A stretch of DNA of 64,000 bases from an uncultured Acidobacteriota bacterium. Its GTDB lineage: Bacteria; Acidobacteriota; UBA6911. The position numbers were made by a program, and so were the translations under genes. Position 1 is the first letter of the stretch; each line of letters begins with the position of its first letter. The notes beneath the pieces were generated by a model, which saw only the letters and a list, made by a program, of their open reading frames with translations, was not told the DNA's origin and did no database searches. Below are positions 5,569 to 46,292 of this stretch, piece by piece. The DNA lies in the NCBI GenBank assembly GCA_963843575.1, contig CAWJKZ010000010.1, positions 384,001 through 448,000 of the forward strand, read 5' to 3'.

Positions 5569-6201
5569 ATGGTGTACTTACCGGGAGGTGCGGTCTTGAT
5601 TGGGTATCTGCTCATCGGCGTGAACGTCCTGATCTCGATGCTCGCCTTCTCGTCCGGGAAGGGGGGCGTCTCGAATCGTTTCCTCTTTGTTCCGAGCGAG
5701 GTGGCCGCAGGGCGTAACATCGGCGGGATGATCCTTTCGAACTTCTCGCACGCGGACATGGGGCACCTGTTGTTCAACATGCTCTCGCTGTACTTCTTCG
5801 CACCCGTGGTCGAGTACGGGCTCGGGGGGTCGGGGCTGCTGACGATCTACTTCGTCTCGGGAATCTGCGCGGGCATCTTCATTTTCTATTTCCACCGCCG
5901 CAATCCCGCCTATCGCGCCCTCGGGGCAAGCGGCTCGGTGTCGGGCGTGATCTTCGCCTCGATCGTGCTCCAACCCTCGATGAGCCTCTATCTCTTCCTG
6001 GTGCCCGTCCCCATCCCCGGCCCGGTCTTTGCCGTGGGATACATCTTCCTCTCGACAATCCTGATGCGCCGTGGCGGGGGCGGTATCAGCCACGAGGCGC
6101 ATATCGGAGGGGCGGTGGCGGGGTTCGTGCTAGCCGGGCTGCTCTATCCTCCCGGGTTCAATCCCCTTCTCGAGAGGATCGCGCACCTGTTCGGGGGATG
6201 A
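5569..6201 (+). CDS. Rhomboid family intramembrane serine protease
   Basis: HLLFNM, GASG (catalytic Ser) and AHIGG (catalytic His). Confidence 0.9.
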   Translation: MVYLPGGAVLIGYLLIGVNVLISMLAFSSGKGGVSNRFLFVPSEVAAGRNIGGMILSNFSHADMGHLLFNMLSLYFFAPVVEYGLGGSGLLTIYFVSGICAGIFIFYFHRRNPAYRALGASGSVSGVIFASIVLQPSMSLYLFLVPVPIPGPVFAVGYIFLSTILMRRGGGGISHEAHIGGAVAGFVLAGLLYPPGFNPLLERIAHLFGG

Positions 6202-29333: not shown

Positions 29334-30467
29334 TCAACAGGGTCTCGAGCGACGCTCGGCGACTGCCGTGATCCGCATGTCCCTGCCGAGGCGGATCACA
29401 TCAAATACGAGGGGTGTGCTGAACAGTTCCGTCCAGCGCCGTCGGTCGCCGCGCCCGAGAAAGATCTGCGTAATCTGATGACGTCTCGAAAAAGCGACCA
29501 GCGTTTCAGCAACGTTGCCGCCCTGAATCACCCGTGTCTCGATGTGCAGATTTCGCGCAAAATTCAAGTGCCGCTCGAGCGCCCCTCGCTCGGCAATAGG
29601 CAGGCGCGTCAGATCGGGGTACGGACAAACATACACGGCGAAGCATTCTGCTCGGATATAGTCCGCCACTCGCTTTGCCCGGCGGATCAGCATCGCACTC
29701 GCGGCATCCGACGTCACATGGACGAGCACCTTTTCCCTGGCCGTCATGTGACACTCCTCGGAACCCGGCGGGGAAAGGCGTTGCGTGGACGCAGACTCGA
29801 CGGAGTCTTCCTGCTGTATCTGAACCTGGTGCGCCGTCTGCCTCAACGCCAGTTCCCTGAGTGCCCCCAGAGTTGACTCCCTGAAAAAGTTCTCGAGAGC
29901 CCTCTCTGCCTTCTCAGGTGGATACACGGCGCCGCGTCGAAGCCTGTTCATGAGCGCTTCAACCGTGAGGTCGACCATGACCACCTCGTCCGCCTGGGCC
30001 ACGACCCAGTCAGGCACGGTCTCGCGAACCCGTATCCCGGTCATGTGCAACACCTGGTCGTTCAGGCTCTCCAGGTGTTGCACGTTCAGCGTGGTAAGGA
30101 CGTCGATACCCGCCTCGAGCAGCATGAGAACGTCCTCCCAGCGCTTGGCGCGCTCCGACCCGGGTACATTGGTGTGGGCAAGTTCGTCGACCAGGCAAAC
30201 GGCAGGGTGACGGGCCAAGATCGCGGCTGTGTCCATCTCTTCGAAAGCATGTCCTCTGTAGGGAATCGTGCGGCGCGCCACTGCTTCGAGTGTCTCGGCC
30301 TTCGCGATGGTGTCCTGGCGCCCGTGTGGCTCAAAGTAGCCGATGGCGACGTCCACCCCCGATCGCTTGAGGTCCTGCCCTTCCTCGAGCATGCGGAACG
30401 TCTTGCCGACGCCAGCCGCAAAGCCCAGGAAGATCTTCAGCCGGCCTGGCACTGCAACCTTTCCCAT
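29334..30467 (-). CDS. kdpD: KdpD N-terminal sensor domain + Usp domain, no kinase (copy 2)
   Basis: GRLKIFLGFAAGVGKT, LVDELAHTN, TTLNVQHLESLND and LRELAL. Confidence 0.88.
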   Translation of the reverse strand: MGKVAVPGRLKIFLGFAAGVGKTFRMLEEGQDLKRSGVDVAIGYFEPHGRQDTIAKAETLEAVARRTIPYRGHAFEEMDTAAILARHPAVCLVDELAHTNVPGSERAKRWEDVLMLLEAGIDVLTTLNVQHLESLNDQVLHMTGIRVRETVPDWVVAQADEVVMVDLTVEALMNRLRRGAVYPPEKAERALENFFRESTLGALRELALRQTAHQVQIQQEDSVESASTQRLSPPGSEECHMTAREKVLVHVTSDAASAMLIRRAKRVADYIRAECFAVYVCPYPDLTRLPIAERGALERHLNFARNLHIETRVIQGGNVAETLVAFSRRHQITQIFLGRGDRRRWTELFSTPLVFDVIRLGRDMRITAVAERRSRPC

Positions 30468-30479
30468 GACGGCAGCCTT

Positions 30480-31577
30480 TCAGTGCGGGAAAACGGTGAC
30501 GTCGATCCCTTCAGCTTGCCGGATCAATCGGTTGATGATGCTGCCCCAGAGACGCCGCCATCCTCCCTGGCGCAGAGTGTGCCCGACATAGATCTGGGTT
30601 ATCGCCTTCCGCCGCGCATATTTGAGGATTGCATCCACAACATCGAGACCTTCAAGCATTACGACTTCTGCGCCGACAGTGCGGGCACACGACAAATTGC
30701 CCTCGAGAGTCGCCTGATCCCCCGCGGACAGCATGGGCTGCCTCACGTAGGTCACGTAGAGCTCGCCGTGAAAGCGGTCCGCATTGCGCCTGCCGCTGGC
30801 AATCATGGTCGAAGCGTTGGATTTTGGCGTAACGCAAAGCAGTACGCGCTCGTTGGCGCCCCAGCTTTGTTCTATCCCGTGGGCCTCCAGATAGGCTTCG
30901 AGTTGCCTGTCGACCACGTCCGCCGCGACCACCAGGGCCATTTCCCGCAGCCGTGACAGTTTCTGTTCCTCGTCCTCGAGGTCGGGACGACTGACTCTTG
31001 CGGATCGGGCTACACTCTCCGGCGTCGGGGCATCAACGACGACAATCTCGTCTGAGACGTCGAGAAAGGCCCTCGGAATACTGTGGGCCGCACGTTTACC
31101 GGTGATGCGCCCCAGTTCGTCCCTGAATTCCTCGATATACTGCAGATTCATCGACGTGATGACGGAGATGCCCTTCTGGAGCAACTCCTCCACATCCATC
31201 CATCGGTTCGGGTTACGGCTTCCCGGAGGATTATTGAACGCAAGGCCGTCAATGACGACGACGCGTGGCCGCCGCTGCAGAATCGCCTCGACGTCAAGCA
31301 CCTGCTCCCCTGAGATTCTGAGCGGAGCTATGACTTCGGCTGAGGCGACAAGTCTTTCGACTTCAGCGGAGTATTTGGGTTGCAGCAGCCCCAGGACGAC
31401 ATCCTCGCCTCGTTCGCGCCGCCGCCGTGCTTCATCCAGCATCTGGTACGACTTGCCCACGCCGGAGGCGTACCCTAGAAAGACCTTGAGCTTTCCCCGC
31501 TGTCCCATTCGCTCCTGCAGCTCAACCTGCCGCAGCAGTTTTTCGGGATCCGGTCTCTCGCCAGGGGAATCGTGCAT
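30480..31577 (-). CDS. kdpD: KdpD N-terminal sensor domain + Usp domain, no kinase (copy 1, more divergent)
   Basis: GKLKVFLGYASGVGKS, VIDGLAFNN, TSMNLQYIE and LREMAL. Confidence 0.85.
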   Translation of the reverse strand: MHDSPGERPDPEKLLRQVELQERMGQRGKLKVFLGYASGVGKSYQMLDEARRRRERGEDVVLGLLQPKYSAEVERLVASAEVIAPLRISGEQVLDVEAILQRRPRVVVIDGLAFNNPPGSRNPNRWMDVEELLQKGISVITSMNLQYIEEFRDELGRITGKRAAHSIPRAFLDVSDEIVVVDAPTPESVARSARVSRPDLEDEEQKLSRLREMALVVAADVVDRQLEAYLEAHGIEQSWGANERVLLCVTPKSNASTMIASGRRNADRFHGELYVTYVRQPMLSAGDQATLEGNLSCARTVGAEVVMLEGLDVVDAILKYARRKAITQIYVGHTLRQGGWRRLWGSIINRLIRQAEGIDVTVFPH

Positions 31578-31635
31578 CGTGGCTCACCAAGTCTTGCGAT
31601 AAGCGGCTTAGGGTCTGTCACAGGATAACAGGCCC

Positions 31636-32325
31636 TTAGGGAAGCTCCATCCGATAGCCGATCCAGGGCTCGGTTATGATGTACGTCGGTCTCGCAGGGT
31701 CCGGTTCGATTTTCTTACGCAAGTGGTTTATGAAAGTGCGTAGATACTCCAGTTCGCTGCCGTAATCCGGGCCCCAGACGGCCTGCAGCAGTCTCGCATG
31801 AGTGAGCGGCGCATTCGCATGCGTGACGAGGTAGTGCAACAGATCGAATTCCTTCGGTGTGAGGTGAACTCTATCCCCGTGAACCGTGACGCGGCGCTGC
31901 ACAAGATCAATGGCTACGGCTCCGAATTCCAGAGCACTCGGCCCCCCTTCGGGAGCCAGCGGCACCCGGCGGAGCGCGGCGCGCATCCTGGCCAGAAGCT
32001 CAGGCGTGCTGTACGGCTTGGTGACGAAGTCGTCGGCTCCGGCGTCAAGGGCTGCAATCTTGTCCTTCTCGCTATCGCGTACCGTGAGCATGATGATCGC
32101 AGCCTCCGAAACCGAACGGATCCGTCTACAGGCCTCGATCCCTCCCACGCCCGGCAAGTTAATGTCGAGCAGGACGAGGTCGTACGGCTGCTTCCCGAGT
32201 ATGTCGAACGCCTCCTCGGCCGTGCGCGCCGCTCCAACCTCGTGCCCCTGCGCAATCAAGGTGACCTTCATCACCCGGCGTATCTGTGGATCGTCATCCA
32301 CAACCAGAACTCGTGCTGCACTCAT
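31636..32325 (-). CDS. kdpE: Response regulator KdpE (OmpR family)
   Basis: VVDDD, LLDINLP, LDAGADD, LTPKEFDLL and TEPWIGYR; kdp context. Confidence 0.9.
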   Translation of the reverse strand: MSAARVLVVDDDPQIRRVMKVTLIAQGHEVGAARTAEEAFDILGKQPYDLVLLDINLPGVGGIEACRRIRSVSEAAIIMLTVRDSEKDKIAALDAGADDFVTKPYSTPELLARMRAALRRVPLAPEGGPSALEFGAVAIDLVQRRVTVHGDRVHLTPKEFDLLHYLVTHANAPLTHARLLQAVWGPDYGSELEYLRTFINHLRKKIEPDPARPTYIITEPWIGYRMELP

Positions 32326-33812
32326 GGCGCTGTCCTCGTCCTCGCATGCGGCAGACGGATCACGAATTCCGCCCCCTGCCCGGGCACCGAATCGACCCAG
32401 ATATCTCCTGCGTGCGCCACCACGATTTCCCGTGCGATGGCGAGACCCATGCCGGTTCCCGGGACGTGGCCGCGAGCGTTGGCGCCGCGGTAGAACTTTT
32501 CAAAGATTCGCGACATCTCGGACTCGGAGATCCCCTCTCCCTCATTCCGGATGGCGATCACTATTGAATTGCCATCTGGAACCGCACTGATCCGGACAGG
32601 CGATGCCGGAGGCGAATACTTCACCGCGTTGTCGATCAGGTGGCGCACGACGAGTTGCATCAGTTCGAGGTCGACGGCTACGGCGGGCAGATCGTCGGCG
32701 ATTGAGAGTTCGACGGCTCTCCCGTCGAGGGTGGCCCGCATCTGGTAGAGTGAGTCCTCGACGAGGGCCCGAGCGGTGCACGGCTCTCTTTTCAGCTGCA
32801 GATTCCCGGCATCGATCCGCGATAGATGAATGGCTTCGTTCACGAGCACGTTCAGTTGCTCCACAGATTCATCGATGATGCTCAGCGCCTGCTGCCGGTC
32901 GTTCAGTTCCACCACGGTTGAGGAAAGGATAGCGGTGATGGCCGCCTTGATCGACGTGATCGGAGTCTTCAGTTCATGGGCCAGCGCATCCATCAATGTC
33001 GATTTCAGCTCTTCGCTTTGCCGCGCCACGTCGGCGCGAATTGCCGCTTCCTGGGCATGGGCCTTGGCGAGGCCGAGCGATACCAGGCTCAGGAGTGCAT
33101 CCAAGGCCGCCTCGGAAATCAGGCGGTCTGTCAACGCCAGGCTCCCAATCGGATCCCCCCCGAAGGTGACGGGCACTACCAGGACTTGGTCCTCCGCGGC
33201 GCGGATGCTGCCCCCCTGAACGGCAACTTCGCGAAGGCGGGGCTGGATCCCTGGCATGTCGTCAGCGCCGGCCAGCCACGTATGGTCAGCGCCCCTGTCA
33301 TACAGGGCAACATAAGGAATTTCGTAAATCCGAGCTACGTGCTGCGTGATCTGTTCTCCCACGGGTTGATGAGGATCGGAAACCAGGATCGCCCGGCTGA
33401 GCGCATAGAGCCTCTCAACCTCGAGACGGCCGCTCAAGGCTTCGCGTGTCCGCCGGCGGGCACGCTCGGACATTTGGCTGGCCGTGACGGAGGTGATGAG
33501 AAATGCGAGCAGGGCTATCCAGTTGAGCGGGTCTTCGATGTTGAGAGTACCGACCGGCGGAAGGAAGAGCAGGTTCAGAAGAAAGGTTGCGCCAAAAGAT
33601 CCGGCGAGCGCTTCCGGGAGCCCCCATCGCGCGGCCACGAAAAGAATGGTGACCAGGTAGAGGAACCCAACCGTCATCGGGTTAAGGACAAGCCACCGGC
33701 TGCAAACAAACGATTCGATTCCGACAATCGCCAGTGTTGCAGCGATACGAAATGCGATTAAGAGCATACGAGGCCGCACCGCGATCTCCAGCAATTGACT
33801 ATTATGCGCCAT
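32322..33812 (-). CDS. kdpD: KdpD membrane/GAF/histidine kinase module
   Basis: 4 TM (DUF4118-like), AHELKTP, LIDNAVKYS and GTGMGL. Confidence 0.88.
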   Translation of the reverse strand: MAHNSQLLEIAVRPRMLLIAFRIAATLAIVGIESFVCSRWLVLNPMTVGFLYLVTILFVAARWGLPEALAGSFGATFLLNLLFLPPVGTLNIEDPLNWIALLAFLITSVTASQMSERARRRTREALSGRLEVERLYALSRAILVSDPHQPVGEQITQHVARIYEIPYVALYDRGADHTWLAGADDMPGIQPRLREVAVQGGSIRAAEDQVLVVPVTFGGDPIGSLALTDRLISEAALDALLSLVSLGLAKAHAQEAAIRADVARQSEELKSTLMDALAHELKTPITSIKAAITAILSSTVVELNDRQQALSIIDESVEQLNVLVNEAIHLSRIDAGNLQLKREPCTARALVEDSLYQMRATLDGRAVELSIADDLPAVAVDLELMQLVVRHLIDNAVKYSPPASPVRISAVPDGNSIVIAIRNEGEGISESEMSRIFEKFYRGANARGHVPGTGMGLAIAREIVVAHAGDIWVDSVPGQGAEFVIRLPHARTRTAP

Positions 33813-38354: not shown

Positions 38355-40148
38355 TCAGCCCTGGAAAAGAACCGCTCCGCGCATGAGCAGATGCTCCACC
38401 ACCGGACCCAGCGACAGCACCGGGAAGAACGTGAGGGCACCGACAATGACAACCGTTCCCACCAGCAAACCAACGAACAGAGATCCGTGGGTCGGCAGCG
38501 TCCCACTCGTGAAAGGGACGCGCCCCTTTGCGGCCAGGCTCCCCGCAATGGCGAGGATCGGTACGATAAACAGGAAACGCCCGATCAACATCGCGAGCCC
38601 GATCGTCAGGTTGTACCAGGGAGTATTCGCGTTCAGCCCGGCGAAGGCGCTCCCGTTATTCCCCGTTCCGCTGGAATAGGCATAGAGTATTTCGGTGAAC
38701 CCGTGCGGTCCGCCGTTGTTCAGATTCGCCGTTGCAGGCCCGGGAGGATTCCAATACCCGTCTTTGGCAAAAGGGATCACCGAACTCAGGCCGGAGAAAA
38801 CAAGGATCGTGGCGGCCGCGGCGAGCAACGCAATCATCGCCATCTTCACTTCTTTCTGTTCGATCTTTTTGCCGATGTATTCCGGGGTCCGGCCAACCAT
38901 GAGACCCGCGATGAAGACGGCGAGAATCGCATAGACCAGCATCCCGTACAGGCCCGAACCCACTCCACCGAAGATGACTTCACCGGTCTCGATATTGAAC
39001 AGCGCGACCAACCCTCCCAGGGGCGTCAGGCTGTCGTGCATAGTGATTACCGCCCCGCAACTGGCATCGGTCGTGATCGTGGCAAACAGGGCTGAAGCCG
39101 CATTCCCGAAACGGACCTCCTTGCCCTCCATGTTGCCGCCGGGCTGCGCGCCTGTGTAATAGCTTTCGACTCCCGTGCCGGCCAGCACGGGATTGCCGGC
39201 CTGTTCCGACCAGTAGCTGGCGAATGCCCCTGCCAGAAAAAGAGCAGACATGGCAGCCAAGATCGTCCAGCCCTGGCGCGTGTCGCCCACCATCCTGCCG
39301 AACGTGTAGGTCAGGCCGGCCGGGATGCACAGAATAAGCAGCATCTGGAAGAAGTTCGACAGCGGCGTCGGGTTTTCATAGGGGTGCGCCGAGTTCGCGT
39401 TGAAAAAGCCGCCGCCGTTGGTCCCCAGCATTTTGATCGCTTCTTGAGATGCGACGGGCCCCTGCGGCAGTACTTGAATGCCTCCCTCGACTGTCTGAAC
39501 GGTTTTGTAGCCACCGAAATTCTGGATGACACCCTGGGAGCAAAGGAAAAGTGCCGCTGCGAGGGATGCGGGCAAAAGGATGTAAACGGTGCAGCGGGTC
39601 AGATCCACCCAGAAGTTGCCTATGGCAGTCGCGGTCTGCCGGGCGAAACCACGGATCAACGCGATGGCAACGGCTATCCCGACTGCTGCAGAGGCAAAGT
39701 TTTGGACGGCCAGGCCCGCCATCTGTACGAAGTAGCTCATCGTGATTTCAGGCACATACGACTGCCAGTTCGTGTTGGTCATGAAACTCACTGCAGTATT
39801 GAAAGCCAGGTCGGGGGTGATGCTGATGGCATCTTTCGGAGCGCCCGCCGTGCCGAAATGTTGCGGATTGAATGGCAACAGCCCCTGGAGGCGCTGCATC
39901 GCGTACAGCAGCAGGAAACTGCTCAGGCTGAACGAGAGCAGGGACGCGGCATACTTCGACCACCCCTGCTCGCTATCCTCCTCGACACCTCCGAACCGGT
40001 AGATCAGTTTCTCGAGCGGACGCAGGAGCGGGTGCAGGAAGGTCCGTTCGCCTTCGAAGACCCGGAGCATGAACAGCCCGACGGGTTTGGCAATGGCCAG
40101 CAAGACAGCAACATAGATGAGGATCTGGACGACACCGGCAGCGCTCAT
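38355..40148 (-). CDS. kdpA: K+-transporting ATPase subunit A
   Basis: [22 protein letters not shown] and NNGSAF. Confidence 0.97.
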
Positions 40149-40157
40149 CTCAACACC

Positions 40158-40241
40158 TCAAAAACGCTCCGGCCGGAGCAGGGCGTAAATCAGATACCCG
40201 CAAAGGCAAACGGCGGCGACACCTGCGATAGCGTATTCCAC
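40158..40241 (-). CDS. kdpF: KdpF peptide (27 aa), absent from the ORF track
   Basis: GTG start; MEYAIAGVAAVCLCGYLIYALLRPERF with the YL.YALL.PE.F signature. Confidence 0.9.
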   Translation of the reverse strand: MEYAIAGVAAVCLCGYLIYALLRPERF

Positions 40242-40345: not shown

Positions 40346-40804
40346 TCACAAAGCCTCGATCAGCACGCGATGCCCGCGTTTTCGCAGGCCCCTGGCGAGC
40401 GGAACCATCTCCGACTCCGACAGCCGCCAGCGGCTACCTGGAGCGATCAGCACGACAGAGCCGGGTTTCAGCGGCAGCCCTGCAAGATCCAGGAGCGTCC
40501 GACATAAGAGGATGGATAATCGGGCCCGGCGTCCGTCGTGCTCCGTGATCGTCGCGAGCCTCTTTCGAATGAAGACGGGATCAATAACCGGGCGACTCAA
40601 GTCGAGCGGGTAAGGAATGATCTGGGGGACGAAAACGTTGACGACCGTGTCAGGGCTCCGGGTCAGATCAAGGGCCGTCACCCAGGCGCGGTGAGATGCC
40701 TGCAGGTCCAAAATAATCAGATTGACCTCGAGCTCGTTTGCGGGTGCCACATCGGACAGCGGTTGGAGGTTTTCGCGACCAACCGTCTCGGCTCCGGGTT
40801 TCAT
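40346..40804 (-). CDS. Hypothetical Usp-like protein, first gene of the kdp operon
   Basis: VPQIIPYPL...LLCR...LKPGSVVLI...LARGLRKRGHRV; ATG at 40804 after GGGGAGG. Confidence 0.6.
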   Translation of the reverse strand: MKPGAETVGRENLQPLSDVAPANELEVNLIILDLQASHRAWVTALDLTRSPDTVVNVFVPQIIPYPLDLSRPVIDPVFIRKRLATITEHDGRRARLSILLCRTLLDLAGLPLKPGSVVLIAPGSRWRLSESEMVPLARGLRKRGHRVLIEAL

Positions 40805-40849
40805 CTTCGCCTCCCCAATCACATCCCGAGCACAGATTACGCGCGGATC

Positions 40850-40889
40850 CATAAACAAGGCATAAACGGGGGCTAAGGATTTTGTGAAG
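40850..40889 (-). promoter_or_regulatory. Putative KdpE-binding direct repeats
   Basis: Minus strand TTTATG-N5-TTTATG (40866-40850), plus degenerate CTTCAC and CCTTAG upstream at about 11-bp period. Confidence 0.55.
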
Positions 40890-40994
40890 GTGAAGTGGGG
40901 CAATTTAGCAGGGATCACGGCCGGTCCTCGTAAGACCTACCGAAAATCAGCCTGAGTATGTCGGGGGGGGTTGCTTCTTCAGAGGCCTGGCGCT

Positions 40995-41338: not shown

Positions 41339-42166
41339 TCAGTGGAAGGATTCGATCGCGAGCATTGGAGTGCCGTCCTTCGTCGATGTCCCTGCCAGCA
41401 GGGTTCTCTTGGGGGGGACCCGCGTCAGCGCGGGTTGCGGAAAGACCGCTATGCGTTTGTGCAGCAGGACCGTCGGGCCGATCACGATGACGGCAGGGGG
41501 CTGGACCTCCTCCCATCCTTCCAAGGCTTCGGCCAGCGTCGTCACCACCGCGCGCTGCGACTCCAGCGTTCCGCTCTCGATGACCGCGACCGGCACCGAG
41601 CCGTCGACACCGTCGTCGAGCAGGAGGCGCCGGATTTCCGGAAAGCCGTCGACGCCCATCAGGATTACCAGGTTTCCGGCACTGCGATAGAGAGCAACAT
41701 AGTCGGGCGTCGAAGCCCCGGCGCACCGGTGCCCCGTCACAACCGCGAAGCTGTCCGAAACACCGCGGAACGTCAGGGGGATGCCGGCCGCAGCCGGCAC
41801 CGCGAGCGCGCTCGTTACCCCCGGAACCACTTCAAAAGCAATGCCTCTCGCGGCGAGGAAAGCTGCTTCCTCGCCCCCGCGCCCGAAAACGAATGGATCT
41901 CCCCCCTTCAGACGCACGACGGTCTTGCCCATTGCGGCGTACCTCGCGAGCTGTTCGTTGATGTGGTCCTGGCAGAGGGCGTGCGCTCCCGGCTTCTTTC
42001 CCGCATAGATCCGTTCGGCTTCGGCCGGAGCCTCCTCGAGCAGCGCAGAACTCACCAGGCGGTCATAGACGATCACGTCGGCCGCGCGGATGCGCTCCAG
42101 GCCGCGCAGCGTGATGAGCCCTGGATCTCCGGGGCCGGCACCCACAATGTACACTTTGCCGTTCAT
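41339..42166 (-). CDS. cobA: Uroporphyrinogen-III C-methyltransferase
   Basis: VGAGPGDPGLIT, VYDRL, RLKGGDPFVFGRGGEE and VPGVTS. Confidence 0.95.
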   Translation of the reverse strand: MNGKVYIVGAGPGDPGLITLRGLERIRAADVIVYDRLVSSALLEEAPAEAERIYAGKKPGAHALCQDHINEQLARYAAMGKTVVRLKGGDPFVFGRGGEEAAFLAARGIAFEVVPGVTSALAVPAAAGIPLTFRGVSDSFAVVTGHRCAGASTPDYVALYRSAGNLVILMGVDGFPEIRRLLLDDGVDGSVPVAVIESGTLESQRAVVTTLAEALEGWEEVQPPAVIVIGPTVLLHKRIAVFPQPALTRVPPKRTLLAGTSTKDGTPMLAIESFH

Positions 42167-42789
42167 AAGTCCTCTCTCTCCTGGAGATGCTTCAGGACCG
42201 GGGCTTCGCCCTGCATCAGCCGAGGCAACACGTGCTCATCCAGGAGCCGGTACCAGGCCGCGCGCCGGAGACTTGCGTCCGGATAGCGCGCTTTCAGAAA
42301 GCCGCGCAGGCCGGCTAAGTCTTCGAGAACCTCCCCGAAAGGTTCTCCGAGAATGCCGCCCAGACAGTCCCGAATCCTGGAAGCGAACGCCGGGGCGGCA
42401 CCGGAAGTCGATACCGTGACGACGAGGTTGCCGCGGCGCAGCACGGCGGGAAAAATGAAGTCCGAATGCAGGGGATCATCGACGATGTTGACCAGGACGT
42501 TGCGGCTCCGCGCACAATCAAAGATCTCCCGGTTGACCGCGGGGTCGTCGGTCGCCCCCACCACGATCCACATCCCATCGAGGTCGGCAGGGACGAATCC
42601 CCGCCTCTCCCACGACACGCCGACTCCCCGGATCAGCTCCTGCACAGGATCGGTGAGCTGCGGGGCAATCACCCGGACACGAGCACCTCCCTGAAGAAGG
42701 GCGCGGATCTTCATGGCCGCCGCGACGCCCCCGCCCACGACAAGCGCCGACCGTCCGTCGAATTTCAGGTGTACAGGATAAAGATCCAT
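42163..42789 (-). CDS. Precorrin-2 dehydrogenase/sirohydrochlorin ferrochelatase (CysG N-terminal part, SirC/Met8-like)
   Basis: LVVGGGVAA..K, ATDD..VN, VNIVDDP..SDF.FP and VSTSGAAP. Confidence 0.92.
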   Translation of the reverse strand: MDLYPVHLKFDGRSALVVGGGVAAAMKIRALLQGGARVRVIAPQLTDPVQELIRGVGVSWERRGFVPADLDGMWIVVGATDDPAVNREIFDCARSRNVLVNIVDDPLHSDFIFPAVLRRGNLVVTVSTSGAAPAFASRIRDCLGGILGEPFGEVLEDLAGLRGFLKARYPDASLRRAAWYRLLDEHVLPRLMQGEAPVLKHLQEREDL

Positions 42790-42830
42790 AAAACGAAAAA
42801 CCCGCCACCTGCTCAGTGGCGGTGGCGGGC
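42790..42830 (-). terminator. Intrinsic terminator (attenuator) immediately before the siroheme operon start codon
   Basis: Minus strand CCCGCCACC-gccactgagca-GGTGGCGGG-TTTTTCGTTTT-ATG. Confidence 0.85.
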
Positions 42831-42858
42831 TCAGGAGTGTCGTTGATGTGTGCCTGGT

Positions 42859-42939
42859 TTAGACTGCGCCTTCCGCCACCCGGAAACCGCGCAGCGTGCA
42901 ACAACAGGCGCAGATCATGTTCGAGCGGCGGAGAACCAT
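42859..42939 (-). CDS. Cys-rich leader peptide, 26 aa (MVLRRSNMICACCCTLRGFRVAEGAV)
   Basis: 4 Cys in 5 codons; contains GGTGGCGG complementary to the terminator 5' arm; ATG 6 nt after the -10 box. Confidence 0.8.
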   Translation of the reverse strand: MVLRRSNMICACCCTLRGFRVAEGAV

Positions 42940-42945
42940 GCGAGA

Positions 42946-42974
42946 TTTATACCGCGCCACCCGTGCCCTGGCAA
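42946..42974 (-). promoter_or_regulatory. sigma70 promoter TTGCCA-N17-TATAAA
   Basis: -35 at 42974-42969, -10 at 42951-42946, exact 17-nt spacer. Confidence 0.7.
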
Positions 42975-43015: not shown

Positions 43016-43044
43016 TTGACATCCGTCGCGGGCGCTGTTAGTCT
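43016..43044 (+). promoter_or_regulatory. sigma70 promoter TTGACA-N17-TAGTCT with extended -10 TG
   Basis: Consensus -35 at 43016-43021, -10 at 43039-43044. Confidence 0.75.
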
Positions 43045-43128: not shown

Positions 43129-43206
43129 ATGACGGGGTTTGCCTGTTGCTGCATCTGTCGCGTGCCCGGGAACCGGTCTCTCGTCCATGAGACAATTGAG
43201 CCTTAG
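43129..43206 (+). CDS. Cys-rich leader peptide, 25 aa (MTGFACCCICRVPGNRSLVHETIEP); may start at in-frame TTG 43081
   Basis: 4 Cys in 5 codons; contains GGAACCGG complementary to the terminator 5' arm; GGAG RBS 8 nt before TTG 43081. Confidence 0.8.
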   Translation: MTGFACCCICRVPGNRSLVHETIEP

Positions 43207-43227: not shown

Positions 43228-43270
43228 AAAAAGCCCCGGTTCCTTCGAAGGAACCGGGGCTTTTTTATTT
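43228..43270 (+). terminator. Intrinsic terminator (attenuator) upstream of sulfite reductase
   Basis: GCCCCGGTTCCT-tcga-AGGAACCGGGGC (12-bp perfect stem) followed by TTTTTTATTT. Confidence 0.9.
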
Positions 43271-43323
43271 TGGGGCCGTTCAAACCCGAAAGACCAGGGG
43301 CCTTTCAGCTTCGAGGAGACCTG

Positions 43324-45507
43324 ATGCGCGACGCGAGTCTGGAGATTGCCCGGGACCGCGGTTTGGGCCTAACCGACACAGTGCGCGAGGAATTGGATGT
43401 TTACGAAGAGCTGATCCGGAAATACCGCGCCGGCCAGGTCGACGAAACCAAAATGCAGAAACAGCGGCTGCATTTCGGCACGTACGCGCAGCGCCAGGAA
43501 GGCGTGCAGATGCAGCGGATCAAAATCCCGGGCGGGCGCCTCACTTCCTGCCAGCTCGGTCGCCTTGCAGACGCGGCGGATCGTTTCGCCAGCGGGTTCA
43601 TTCACTTCACCACGCGCGAAGACGCGCAGATCTACTATGTCAAGCTCGATGAAGTACCTGCTCTTCTTCGTTTCCTGGCCGAGGCCGGCATCACGACCCG
43701 CGAAGCCTGCGGCAATACCGTCCGCAACATAACCTGCTGCTACCGTTCGGGCACGACCAAAGATGAGGCTTTCCCGGTGGCGCCGTACGCCGAAGCGCTC
43801 TTCCGTTATCTGGTCCGAAACAGGTACAACCAGAATCTCGGGCGCAAGTTCAAGATCACCTTCGAAGGCTGCACCGAAGACCACTCGCACCTGCGAATTC
43901 ACGACATCGGGCTGCTCGCCCGCCAGCGCCCCGATGAACACGGCAACGTCCAACGCGGATTCCGCATCTGGCTCGGGGGCGGCCTCGGGGCGGCTCCGCA
44001 GGTCGGCTTGCTCTATTGCGACTTCCTTCCCGAAGACGAGCTGTTCAACGTGGTCGCCGCAACGCTGCGTCTGTTCGATCGATACGGGGAGCGCAAGGCC
44101 AGGATGAAGGCGCGCATGAAATTCCTCATTCAGACCATGGGATGGGACCGATTCCGCGAGGAACTCGAGGCCGAGCGCATGCGCATGGGACCCGTCGACC
44201 TCCTCCCGGAATATCTCGCGGAAGCGCGCGACGTCGTTCCTCCTCTGACGGAACCGGATGCGGGATTCCGGGTGCTGGAGGGCCGCCTCGACGACGCCTC
44301 CTTTACCAGGTGGGTGCAGGACTCCGCTATCGAACACAGGATCCCGTGGCTTCGCGGCGTGCACGTACGCCTCAAAATGGGGGACATAACCGCGGAACGC
44401 GCGCGCCGTCTGGCGCTTCTGGCGCGCAGATTCTCGGCGGGAGAACTGCGGATCTCCATCGAGCAGAACATCTATTTCCCGTGGGTTTCCGCGGACGCTC
44501 TCCCCGACCTGTACGACGGTCTGGGCGAATTGTCGCTGGCCGATCCGGGCGCGGAGACCGTCGAAGACACGACGACCTGCCCGGGAGCCGATACGTGCAG
44601 GCTTGGCATTGCTTCAGCGAAAGGCCTGGGCAGCGTCATCTCCGAGGCCCTGACCGGCCCGGGGACCGCGCATCGCGAACTTGCCCGTTCGCTGCGTATC
44701 AAGGTCTCCGGCTGTCCCAACGGGTGTGCTCAACACTCGATTGCCGACGTCGGATTCCAGGCAGCGGCACTGAATCACGAAGGTCGTACGGTGCCGGCCT
44801 ATCTCGTGTCGGTGGGAGGAAGAGCAAATCTCGACGACGCCGAGTTCGGCCGGCTGATCGGGCGAATTCCGGCAAGGAACGGGGTGCCGGCCCTGCAGGC
44901 ACTCCTCGATCTGTTTAGTCGAGAGAAACTTCCGAACGAGACCTTCGGCAAGTTTGTGGACCGAGTGGGAGAGACCACTTTGAAAGCGGCGCTCGAGCCG
45001 TTGAAACACGTTCCGGCTTATGCGGAGGACCCGTCGTATTACGAAGACTGGGGACATGAGAACGAGCGTTTCGCCGTGCGGCAGGGTGTCCGGGGCGAAT
45101 GCGCCGGTGCGACAGTCGCAGAAACCGTGCCCACGATCGCGGCGGCGTGGGAATGGCTCGCCCAGGCGCGTGCCTTTTTGTATCACCAGGAGTACAAGTC
45201 GGCAGCCCTGGCCGCTTACGAGGCGGCCGCGTGTGCTGCCCGCGTTCCGCTGTATCAGCGTCTCGTCGATCCATTCACTTCGGATCAGGCTCTTTGGGAA
45301 TTCGAGAACATCTTCGTGCTGTCCGGCATGACGGGGGACGAGTGGAAAGATATCTCGAATTGGTTCGAGAGTCGGAAAAACCGGACGGCGGACGATGGGT
45401 CCGCTCGCGAAATTCTGGGTGGGGCGCAGCGACTGATCGAGTACTGTGCCTCATTCAACGAGGCGTCGCCGAAACCGGTGTCGCCCCCCGCAGGTGCGGG
45501 ACTGTAA
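43324..45507 (+). CDS. Ferredoxin-type sulfite (nitrite/sulfite) reductase hemoprotein with C-terminal HEPN-like extension
   Basis: HFTTR, ACGNTVRN, RKFK, TCPGADTCRLG and SGCPNGC siroheme/4Fe-4S motifs; RBS GAGGAG; adjacent to cysH. Confidence 0.92.
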   Translation: MRDASLEIARDRGLGLTDTVREELDVYEELIRKYRAGQVDETKMQKQRLHFGTYAQRQEGVQMQRIKIPGGRLTSCQLGRLADAADRFASGFIHFTTREDAQIYYVKLDEVPALLRFLAEAGITTREACGNTVRNITCCYRSGTTKDEAFPVAPYAEALFRYLVRNRYNQNLGRKFKITFEGCTEDHSHLRIHDIGLLARQRPDEHGNVQRGFRIWLGGGLGAAPQVGLLYCDFLPEDELFNVVAATLRLFDRYGERKARMKARMKFLIQTMGWDRFREELEAERMRMGPVDLLPEYLAEARDVVPPLTEPDAGFRVLEGRLDDASFTRWVQDSAIEHRIPWLRGVHVRLKMGDITAERARRLALLARRFSAGELRISIEQNIYFPWVSADALPDLYDGLGELSLADPGAETVEDTTTCPGADTCRLGIASAKGLGSVISEALTGPGTAHRELARSLRIKVSGCPNGCAQHSIADVGFQAAALNHEGRTVPAYLVSVGGRANLDDAEFGRLIGRIPARNGVPALQALLDLFSREKLPNETFGKFVDRVGETTLKAALEPLKHVPAYAEDPSYYEDWGHENERFAVRQGVRGECAGATVAETVPTIAAAWEWLAQARAFLYHQEYKSAALAAYEAAACAARVPLYQRLVDPFTSDQALWEFENIFVLSGMTGDEWKDISNWFESRKNRTADDGSAREILGGAQRLIEYCASFNEASPKPVSPPAGAGL

Positions 45508-46292
45508 TGAGTGAATCGCCTACTCCACACGAAATCCGCGAAGAACACCAGGTTCTCGTGGCAGGTCGTGTTTTGACTGGAGAAACTGCCTTGCCCGAAC
45601 AGCAGACGAGCTCGTTGTCGCTCTCCGAAAAAGTCGAGATCAGCAAGACCATCATCGAATATGCCATCAGCAAGCACCCGCGTATTTTTGCCGCGTGCTC
45701 CTTCGGCAAGGATTCCCGAGTGATTGTGGATCTTGCGGCGCAGGTTCGTCCGGAGATCCCGTTCATAGGCATCGACACCGGCTACGAATTCCCGGAAACC
45801 CTGGCGTATGCCGACGAGCTCGTGCGCCAAACCGGCGTACGCTTCCGGTGGGTGCGGCCATCGGACGAAGCGCGCCGCAGGATCGACGAACAGTACGGCG
45901 ATTCGTTCATCAGGAACGATCAGTACAAGTGCTGCGAGATGAAGATCCCGGCGATCGAGGGGATCCTGGCGGAATACGACGCCTGGATCACGGGTCTGCG
46001 GCGCGACGAAACCGAATATCGTAAGAATACGAGACTGATCGAGGCGGGAAGGGTCGCCAAGGTCAATCCCATCGCCTTCTGGAACAAGGAGGACGTCTGG
46101 AACTACATCAGCGGCAATGGTCTGAGTTATCACCCGCTGTATGACCTCGGTTATACCTCTCTCGGCTGCAAGCCCTGCACAACCGGCGGCAGAGTTCGTT
46201 CCGGTGGTGGCAGGCAGGGCCAGTTTGAGAGAGCAGGACGCTTCGCGGGCACATCCAATCAGGGACAGGAGTGTGGACTGCATCTGATCTGA
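45507..46292 (+). CDS. cysH: (Phospho)adenylyl-sulfate reductase, Fe-S (APS reductase) type
   Basis: SFGKDS, DTGY.FPET, KCCEMK, TGLRRDE, SLGCKPCT and ECGLH; TAATG coupling to the upstream gene. Confidence 0.93.
   Translation: MSESPTPHEIREEHQVLVAGRVLTGETALPEQQTSSLSLSEKVEISKTIIEYAISKHPRIFAACSFGKDSRVIVDLAAQVRPEIPFIGIDTGYEFPETLAYADELVRQTGVRFRWVRPSDEARRRIDEQYGDSFIRNDQYKCCEMKIPAIEGILAEYDAWITGLRRDETEYRKNTRLIEAGRVAKVNPIAFWNKEDVWNYISGNGLSYHPLYDLGYTSLGCKPCTTGGRVRSGGGRQGQFERAGRFAGTSNQGQECGLHLI

Follow-up and report, generated by a model that had tools for sequence, protein, structure and literature searches.

The siroheme synthesis genes of an uncultured Acidobacteriota bacterium (assembly GCA_963843575.1, contig CAWJKZ010000010.1, positions 384,001 to 448,000; this whole stretch of 64,000 nucleotides (nt) is called the window below) are probably preceded by a classical ribosome-mediated transcription attenuator that senses the charging of tRNA-Cys, a reading to which we assign a probability of about 80%. 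The element lies on the minus strand in front of a sirC-like gene and combines a short upstream open reading frame (uORF) rich in Cys codons with alternative antiterminator and terminator helices, and most likely the siroheme genes are switched on only when cysteine runs short. A first-pass annotation of this DNA had proposed the core of this reading, a leader peptide with Cys codons whose alternative pairings gate the siroheme genes. That core is supported by the anatomy of the sequence, the functions of the genes as read from their domains, the pairings predicted in constrained folds and the conservation of the design in 4 of 4 related Acidobacteriota loci (L001 to L004).

Anatomy of the sirC leader

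The promoter, uORF, complement, terminator and U tract described in the first pass were all recovered base for base on the minus strand, where the leader is laid out as follows.

42969..42974 (42974-42969 in reading direction), minus strand: -35-like hexamer TTGCCA of the sirC leader promoter; hexamer and spacing are identical in L001
42946..42951, minus strand: -10-like hexamer TATAAA, with a 17-nt spacer from TTGCCA
42859..42939, minus strand: leader uORF of 26 codons, MVLRRSNMICACCCTLRGFRVAEGAV followed by a stop; homologous uORFs occur in L001, L002 and L003
42922..42932, minus strand: segment 1 (TCCGCCGCTCG), which pairs with segment 2 in the ribosome-free fold; putative protector or pause hairpin
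42898..42912, minus strand: regulatory Cys codons, TGC GCC TGT TGT TGC (Cys at codons 10, 12, 13 and 14, thus 4 Cys in 5 codons)
42872..42882, minus strand: segment 2 (CGGGTGGCGGA), with the core GGTGGCGG at 42880-42873; predicted partner of segment 1 or of segment 3 (antiterminator)
42801..42829, minus strand: intrinsic terminator hairpin, segments 3 and 4, -23.6 kcal/mol; the core of its 5' arm, CCGCCACC, is common to the antiterminator
42790..42800, minus strand: U tract TTTTTCGTTTT, abutting the sirC ATG at 42789, without a Shine-Dalgarno-like motif; the layout is the same in L001 to L003

Six nt (TCTCGC) separate TATAAA from the ATG at 42939, the last base of the -10 hexamer standing 7 nt before the A of this ATG. 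The uORF is a short frame enriched in the codons of the amino acid that would regulate it, a property kept in L001 to L003, and its stop codon lies at 42861-42859. The core of segment 2 (GGUGGCGG in RNA, GGTGGCGG in DNA) starts 17 nt past the end of the last Cys codon (42898) and is an exact 8-nt complement of CCGCCACC in the 5' arm of the terminator (42828-42821). The terminator was called by a terminator scan, has the arms CCCGCCACC...GGTGGCGGG, also written CCCGCCACCGC...GCAGGTGGCGGG over 42829-42801, and stands between the uORF and the first structural gene. An antiterminator of 8 bp, GGUGGCGG:CCGCCACC, would occupy the 5' arm of the terminator and exclude it; the constrained folds described below fit this arrangement, with weak statistical support. 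In the predicted fold the Cys codons sit between segments 1 and 2, outside the switching helix.

Two divergent units of cysteine biosynthesis

The intergenic region that holds the leader is divergent, with sirC and cobA on the minus strand and sir and cysH on the plus strand.

42163..42789, minus strand: sirC-like gene, precorrin-2 dehydrogenase / sirohydrochlorin ferrochelatase (SirC/Met8-type), 208 aa, with the domains NAD_binding_7, Sirohm_synth_M and CysG_dimeriser
41339..42166, minus strand: cobA-like gene (CobA/SirA-type), uroporphyrinogen-III C-methyltransferase, 275 aa, with a TP_methylase domain; its start overlaps the sirC stop
43324..45507, plus strand: assimilatory sulfite reductase-like gene (sir; siroheme and 4Fe-4S type), with the domains NIR_SIR and NIR_SIR_ferr; GGAGA precedes its ATG at 43324
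45507..46292, plus strand: 3'-phosphoadenosine 5'-phosphosulfate (PAPS)/adenosine 5'-phosphosulfate (APS) reductase gene (cysH-like), with a PAPS_reduct domain (found with a query that lacked the first codon); start and sir stop share 1 nt

Judged by their sequences, the sirC-like and cobA-like genes together form a split siroheme synthase. The N-terminus of SirC as read from the ATG at 42789 agrees with the consensus of 29 homologues, and the closest relatives are Acidobacteriota metagenome-assembled genomes. Siroheme is the prosthetic group of sulfite reductase, and therefore both units belong to cysteine biosynthesis: with the siroheme synthase beside sulfite reductase and PAPS reductase, the genes under control serve the synthesis of the amino acid that would be sensed. 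The first pass had called amino-acid attenuation of a tetrapyrrole pathway unusual, which misses this logic, since the divergent siroheme-dependent sulfite reductase has a Cys uORF and a terminator of its own. In function, the 'tetrapyrrole operon' therefore serves cysteine biosynthesis and makes a pair with the divergent unit. The sulfite reductase itself has 727 aa, the last ~155 of which (window 45040-45507, plus strand) match no Pfam family; this C-terminal extension is kept in L001 and L004 (tblastn matches to residues 1-725 and 3-713).

The second leader, on the plus strand before the sir and PAPS reductase genes, had been overlooked in the first pass. Its parts are the following.

43016..43044, plus strand: promoter-like TTGACA-N17-TAGTCT of the sir leader; TTGACA and a TA..CT/TA...T hexamer are kept in L001 and L004
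43129..43206, plus strand: second leader uORF, MTGFACCCICRVPGNRSLVHETIEP followed by a stop, with Cys codons at 43144-43158 (4 Cys in 5 codons); homologues occur in L001 and L004
43169..43176, plus strand: putative antiterminator segment GGAACCGG inside the uORF, complementary to the 5' arm of the sir-leader terminator
43233..43272, plus strand: sir-leader terminator, a perfect palindromic hairpin (43233-43260) and the T run TTTTTTATTTT; an A run precedes it

The plus-strand and minus-strand leaders share one design, and their sequences are unrelated. Flanked by an A run and a T run, the palindrome at 43233-43260 also reads as a minus-strand terminator (GCCCC...GGGGC TTTTTCG) just upstream of the sirC promoter, and it may shield each of the two divergent units from the other.

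Recurrence of the design in related loci

A genome scan with an alignment of the 29 SirC homologues yielded 35 sirC loci, four of them from Acidobacteriota (L001 to L004). The combination of a Cys uORF and a terminator recurs in all four and in two Gemmatimonadota-type loci (L013 and L014), and this conservation is the main support for the candidate attenuator on the minus strand. L001, whose SirC is 84% identical, has the same divergent layout; in its sirC leader both hexamers, their spacing and TCTCGC-ATG are identical, 4 of the 17 spacer bases differ and the uORF reads MVLCRSNMTCACCCTLRGLRVADSAV, and a leader of the plus-strand type, MRCCICRVPRDRSLVHETAGP, lies before its sir. In L002 and L003, with SirC proteins that are 57-58% identical, the uORFs are MTRFCHILTCCCSGRHASVADGVT and MCQTHDRCVCCRVLRHAWVAAGVD, respectively, each followed by the same terminator and then by a U/A-rich run of 10-12 nt that leads to the sirC ATG. 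L001 to L003 thus all carry, directly 5' of sirC, the Cys uORF, an invariant GGTGGC, AGCCCGCCACCG, the terminator and the U tract. When the window is aligned with these three loci, GGTGGC, AGCCCGCCACCG, the 3' arm and TTATG are invariant, the non-Cys residues of the peptide and the spacer between stop and terminator diverge, and the Cys codons persist with exchanges between TGT and TGC. At L003 3640-3700 a second frame over the same bases also has Cys codons (ending in MTGACVAACCAMHGWQLA before its stop), and its start resembles that of the plus-strand leader (MTGFAC...). We judged the orthologous uORF of L003 to be the frame that ends in VAAGVD, going by the position of its stop relative to GGTGGC.

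The gene order differs in L004, where sirC follows sir in one operon that is preceded by a leader of the sir type, with the uORF MRCWCCPLQFGGNRSRGESKN, the segment GGAACCGG and a GCCCCGG/CCGGGGC terminator. Both there and in L014, where sir comes after cobA, the operon that contains sirC and cobA also contains sir. The uORFs that precede sirC-cobA in L014 (Gemmatimonadetes) and L013 (labelled Burkholderiales), MINRPNSAMCCTTCPSSRERPGNTGGCLS and MLNRQACLCCFSLCPSASERPGKTGVCR, are unrelated in sequence to the others, and each holds a near-copy of the 3' arm of the terminator downstream. In L013 no sir match was detected and the cobA match covers only 35 residues. Positions 690-920 of L013 and 3790-4000 of L014 are nearly alike in their Cys leader (...ERPG(K/N)TG...) and share the terminator CCGGCCGCTC...GAGCGGCC, a likeness that suggests mis-binning or transfer of the sirC-cobA unit. 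By inspection, none of the remaining 29 of the 35 loci (Firmicutes, Chloroflexota and others) has a same-strand frame with a Cys run that ends within ~200 nt upstream of the sirC match; a Cys-rich stretch beside sirC in L007 was dropped as a leader, being on the opposite strand and without a terminator.

Predicted switching between antiterminator and terminator

We infer the start of transcription, the translation of the uORF, the stalling and the conditional termination as follows. Transcription would start at or very near the ATG at 42939, and a ribosome would translate the 26-codon leader. With plentiful Cys-tRNA, the ribosome would reach the stop codon, where its footprint would cover the 3' half of segment 2; segments 3 and 4 could then pair, and RNA polymerase would terminate in the U tract before sirC. 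With scarce Cys-tRNA, the ribosome would stall on the four Cys codons while still 17-31 nt short of segment 2, leaving GGUGGCGG free to pair with CCGCCACC once the latter is transcribed, which would block the terminator and allow read-through into sirC-cobA. If no ribosome were present, segment 2 would be held by segment 1, and termination would be the default. The divergent plus-strand unit would work likewise on sir-cysH, and with the same design on both operons the cofactor and its enzyme would rise together when cysteine is short.

In the ribosome-free minimum free energy (MFE) fold, segment 1 (42932-42922) pairs with segment 2 (42882-42872) and the terminator forms. Sub-folds of the four orthologues gave -23.2 to -31.1 kcal/mol for the terminators, -20.1 to -23.9 kcal/mol for the antiterminator regions and -19.6 to -31.1 kcal/mol for the 5' hairpins; as modelled, the terminator and antiterminator helices are comparable in energy. 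Over the alignment of four loci, 83% of the alignment cells are paired in helix 1:2, 94% in 2:3 and 93% in 3:4, and sliding the partner out of register drops the pairing to 22-72%. Two pairs of helix 1:2 have changed on both sides, including one that is C-G in the window, U-A in L002 and U-G in L001.

The switch was followed by folding the transcript only to the end of segment 3, with a ribosome masked at the Cys codons or at the stop. When the window was folded in this way with no ribosome, 2 nt of segment 3 were paired. When the A site was placed on any one of the four Cys codons, 8 nt of segment 3 were predicted to pair with nt 60-67, which belong to segment 2, and with the ribosome at the stop none was paired. 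The constrained folds of the other eight leaders behave likewise, segment 3 being engaged when the ribosome is stalled and freed when it stands at the stop.

Evidence from chance expectation and from competing readings

Among 436 ATG-led frames of 10-60 codons in the six frames of the 64 kb, only two have at least 4 Cys in 5 residues, and they are the two leader uORFs; both lie in the one divergent intergenic region, and each is followed by a terminator. A third Cys-dense frame, found by a stop-to-stop scan near 39913 on the minus strand, was dismissed as lying out of frame inside kdpA. When both strands of the window were scanned for pairs of hexamers in which each has 5 or more of 6 matches, the promoter of the sirC leader was the sole site. 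The expectation from block shuffles is 1.2 such sites per window, and the weight of the promoter thus lies in its position, 7 nt before the A of the uORF, not in its existence. A stock promoter scan, which requires T at position 6 of the -10 hexamer, reported 0 sites.

Several results weigh against the attenuator as proposed. The 8-nt antiterminator complement is weak when taken alone, since 294 of 5000 dinucleotide shuffles of the minus-strand uORF (5.9%) reach at least 8 nt; its plus-strand counterpart is rarer by chance, with 36 of 5000 shuffles reaching 8 nt. The fold of the whole minus-strand leader is unremarkable (z -1.82; 7 of 200 shuffles fold as well), and that of the plus-strand leader is exceptional (z -4.06). 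No significant covariation was found among the four sequences, and the shuffle controls were reached in 140-500 of 500 runs; the covariation counts are uninformative here because helices 2:3 and 3:4 are nearly invariant. No ribosome mask removes the terminator when the full leader is folded at equilibrium, which is what a kinetic switch would lead one to expect; the switch therefore appears only under a kinetic, co-transcriptional assumption. The stall masks add the assumption that RNA 5' of the ribosome cannot pair with RNA beyond it. L003, L013, L014 and the three sir leaders pair segment 3 with segment 2 even without a ribosome; by these models the 1:2 protector is a feature of the window's lineage and not of the class. 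At 3 of 5 Cys positions of L001, the partner of segment 3 in the stalled state is nt 41-53 and not segment 2. In the plus-strand leader the stop lies ~30 nt past segment 2, and masking of that segment by a terminating ribosome would be less direct.

The weakness of the complement by itself, the number of promoter-like sites, which does not exceed the shuffle expectation, and the fact that translation of the uORF is read from sequence only would also suit a quite different view, in which the Cys-rich frame is a functional small protein or a chance frame without a regulatory part, and the hairpins are controlled by a protein or a metabolite or are constitutive terminators. We consider this very improbable. 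Nine leaders in three groups of unrelated sequence keep a single order (ATG, Cys run, copy of a terminator arm, stop, terminator) before sulfite-reduction or siroheme genes, and the non-Cys residues are not conserved between the groups. A longer frame of 109 aa in the window is interrupted by a stop in L001. The hairpins and leaders match no Rfam family: a search of the window region and six related loci at permissive E-values returned no leader or riboswitch family, the best match overlapping the element being isrD (18.1 bits against a gathering score of 37), and with E values up to 0.1 the homologous leaders were without a match. By motif search, neither terminator type has additional copies in the window or the loci.

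Possible leaderless translation of the uORF and possible control of the sirC start

If transcription starts where the usual sigma-70 geometry places it, the predicted start site coincides with the start codon of the uORF, and no Shine-Dalgarno-like motif precedes the ATG at 42939. Leaderless translation of the uORF is consistent with the promoter geometry in the window and in L001. The uORF ATG of L002 and L003 is placed differently relative to promoter-like hexamers and follows purine-rich stretches: TTGACA-N17-TACAAA lies further upstream of the uORF ATG in L002, and a purine-rich AGAGG lies 6 nt before it in L003. Leaderless initiation, if real, would therefore be specific to a lineage.

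The first pass had further suggested that the same switch controls initiation of sirC translation, and for this the models gave no support, the predicted changes in accessibility of the start region being small and inconsistent. A related possibility is translational attenuation as in mycobacteria: the Cys uORF would mainly govern access to the sirC start, with the hairpin blocking translation rather than terminating transcription, or both levels would act. Its appeal lies in the position of the sirC ATG, 11 nt past the hairpin and without a Shine-Dalgarno-like motif, a layout (10-12 nt) that is kept in L001 to L003, and in the MFE fold of the window, where the sirC AUG pairs with a CAU upstream of the terminator. 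Forcing helix 2:3 raises the probability that the AUG is unpaired in 4 of 4 orthologues (from 0.44 to 0.57, 0.40 to 0.48, 0.36 to 0.55 and 0.16 to 0.45), and the Cys short open reading frame (sORF) studied experimentally in Mycobacterium smegmatis acts on translation, according to the part of that report used here (10.1101/834739). However, these changes are small, and the accessibility of the region from -12 to -1 goes up in the window and L003 and down in L001 and L002. In every leader the hairpin has the canonical form of a GC-rich stem with a U tract after it, and the Cys tract is not predicted to pair with the sirC start region. L013 and L014 share the uORF and terminator design, but in them a GGAGG- or AGGAGA-like site stands apart, well past the terminator; the design thus does not need a start codon that abuts the hairpin. 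Control at the level of translation, by itself or in combination, is unlikely in our estimate, and transcription attenuation is the reading that we retain.

Comparison with known leader-peptide systems

Leader-peptide attenuators are known for the enterobacterial trp, his, leu, thr, pheA and ilv operons. The sirC leader resembles those of the trp/his type in its alternative 1:2, 2:3 and 3:4 pairings, in the intrinsic terminator before the first biosynthetic gene and in how it is predicted to respond to a ribosome that stalls or terminates. It differs in that it would sense cysteine, in that its uORF may start at the 5' end of the mRNA without a leader or a Shine-Dalgarno sequence, in its target, which is a cofactor branch (siroheme) and not the enzymes of an amino-acid pathway, and in its phylum, Acidobacteriota. 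It has no sequence relationship to leaders of the trp/his type, nor an Rfam match to them.

Three published accounts of Cys leaders offer closer comparisons, each drawn on here in part. Canestrari et al. describe leaderless polycysteine sORFs in M. smegmatis that attenuate cysteine-related operons and form a 'Cys ribulon', and they state that uORF attenuation for cysteine was previously undescribed (10.1101/834739). In the portion of that report considered, control by the Ms5788A sORF is translational, the Cys tract pairing with the downstream Shine-Dalgarno sequence, and no intrinsic terminator is involved (10.1101/834739). Common to both systems are a short frame, leaderless in mycobacteria and perhaps so here, consecutive Cys codons (at least two) upstream of cysteine-related operons, and several independent units per genome that would be coordinated through stalling, here two in one intergenic region. 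Unlike the mycobacterial Cys tract as presented in that portion, which sequesters a downstream ribosome-binding site, the Cys codons of the sirC leader lie outside the regulatory helix and outside any helix in contact with the sirC start, and they are followed by a canonical terminator; no sequence homology links the two systems, and the phylum is another.

The second account, by Brewer et al., concerns uORFC-8-2, a predicted Cys-codon uORF before cysS in Rhodobacterales, with a stem and U run that are read as an intrinsic terminator (PMC8632094). Read-through from ribosome stalling at the Cys codons is proposed there as well, and the two tandem Cys codons lie inside the first stem, upstream of the cysteinyl-tRNA synthetase gene of Alphaproteobacteria (PMC8632094). 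The leaders analysed here instead have 3-5 Cys codons outside the switching helix and stand before siroheme or sulfite-reduction genes; compared by description only, the two share neither the position upstream of cysS nor the Cys codons within the first stem, and both are known as predictions. The third account, Seliverstov et al. 2005, reports candidate Cys leader peptides that precede the cys and cbs operons of Actinobacteria (PMC1262725). Like the present leaders, these are short frames that stand before genes of cysteine biosynthesis and have Cys codon runs close to the stop; as far as the part used here goes, they lack conserved terminator hairpins and Rho-dependent termination was suggested for them, whereas here terminator and antiterminator are explicit and conserved (PMC1262725). 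A full-text literature search, whose coverage leaves out most subscription journals, returned no Cys leader described in Acidobacteria or before siroheme genes. From its sequence, the element appears to work like an attenuator of the trp/his type, to have the Cys signal, and perhaps also a leaderless start, in common with the mycobacterial sORFs, and to be homologous to no described family.

Leader-peptide attenuation was long believed to be lacking for cysteine, and the tested cases are mycobacterial and translational. The locus would be a clean pair of terminator-based Cys attenuators in a phylum whose gene regulation is almost uncharted, and it would place the supply of the siroheme cofactor and the enzyme that depends on it under a common amino-acid signal. 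The mechanism is a textbook one, and the value of the locus lies in distribution and annotation, not in the concept: a Cys uORF, a copy of a terminator arm and a terminator could serve as an annotation rule for sulfur-assimilation regulons of uncultured soil bacteria. More speculatively, Acidobacteriota, and apparently Gemmatimonadota, might run sulfate assimilation as a 'Cys ribulon' of terminator-type attenuators with one Cys uORF per operon (here sir/cysH and the siroheme synthase), the uORF being leaderless in this lineage and the sirC start, set in the U tract and lacking a Shine-Dalgarno sequence, adding a translational layer; we regard this wider scheme as possible but less likely than not.

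Other features of the window

Downstream of cobA, a frame of 190 aa at 40346-40918 (minus strand), located between cobA and the kdp operon, matches no Pfam family. Between cobA and this frame, no terminator-like site was detected that would mark the end of the sirC-cobA transcript. At the corresponding side of the siroheme genes in L001, a tRNA gene follows cobA (5721-5793), and no tRNA was found at the equivalent place in the window. On the minus strand at 40165-40180, ~17 nt before the kdpA start (40148), there is a terminator-like hairpin, TGCTCCGGCCGGAGCG with TTTTT after it. It has no Rfam match and may either be a leader or attenuator for the kdp operon or mark where the upstream transcript ends. 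In the region 29334-33812 (minus strand) the Kdp sensor is divided: two tandem genes carry the KdpD N-terminal sensor domain, one of them together with a Usp domain, and a DUF4118-HisKA-HATPase kinase encoded separately and a KdpE-like response regulator go with them. Between this group and kdpC lies a gene for an OmpL-like porin.

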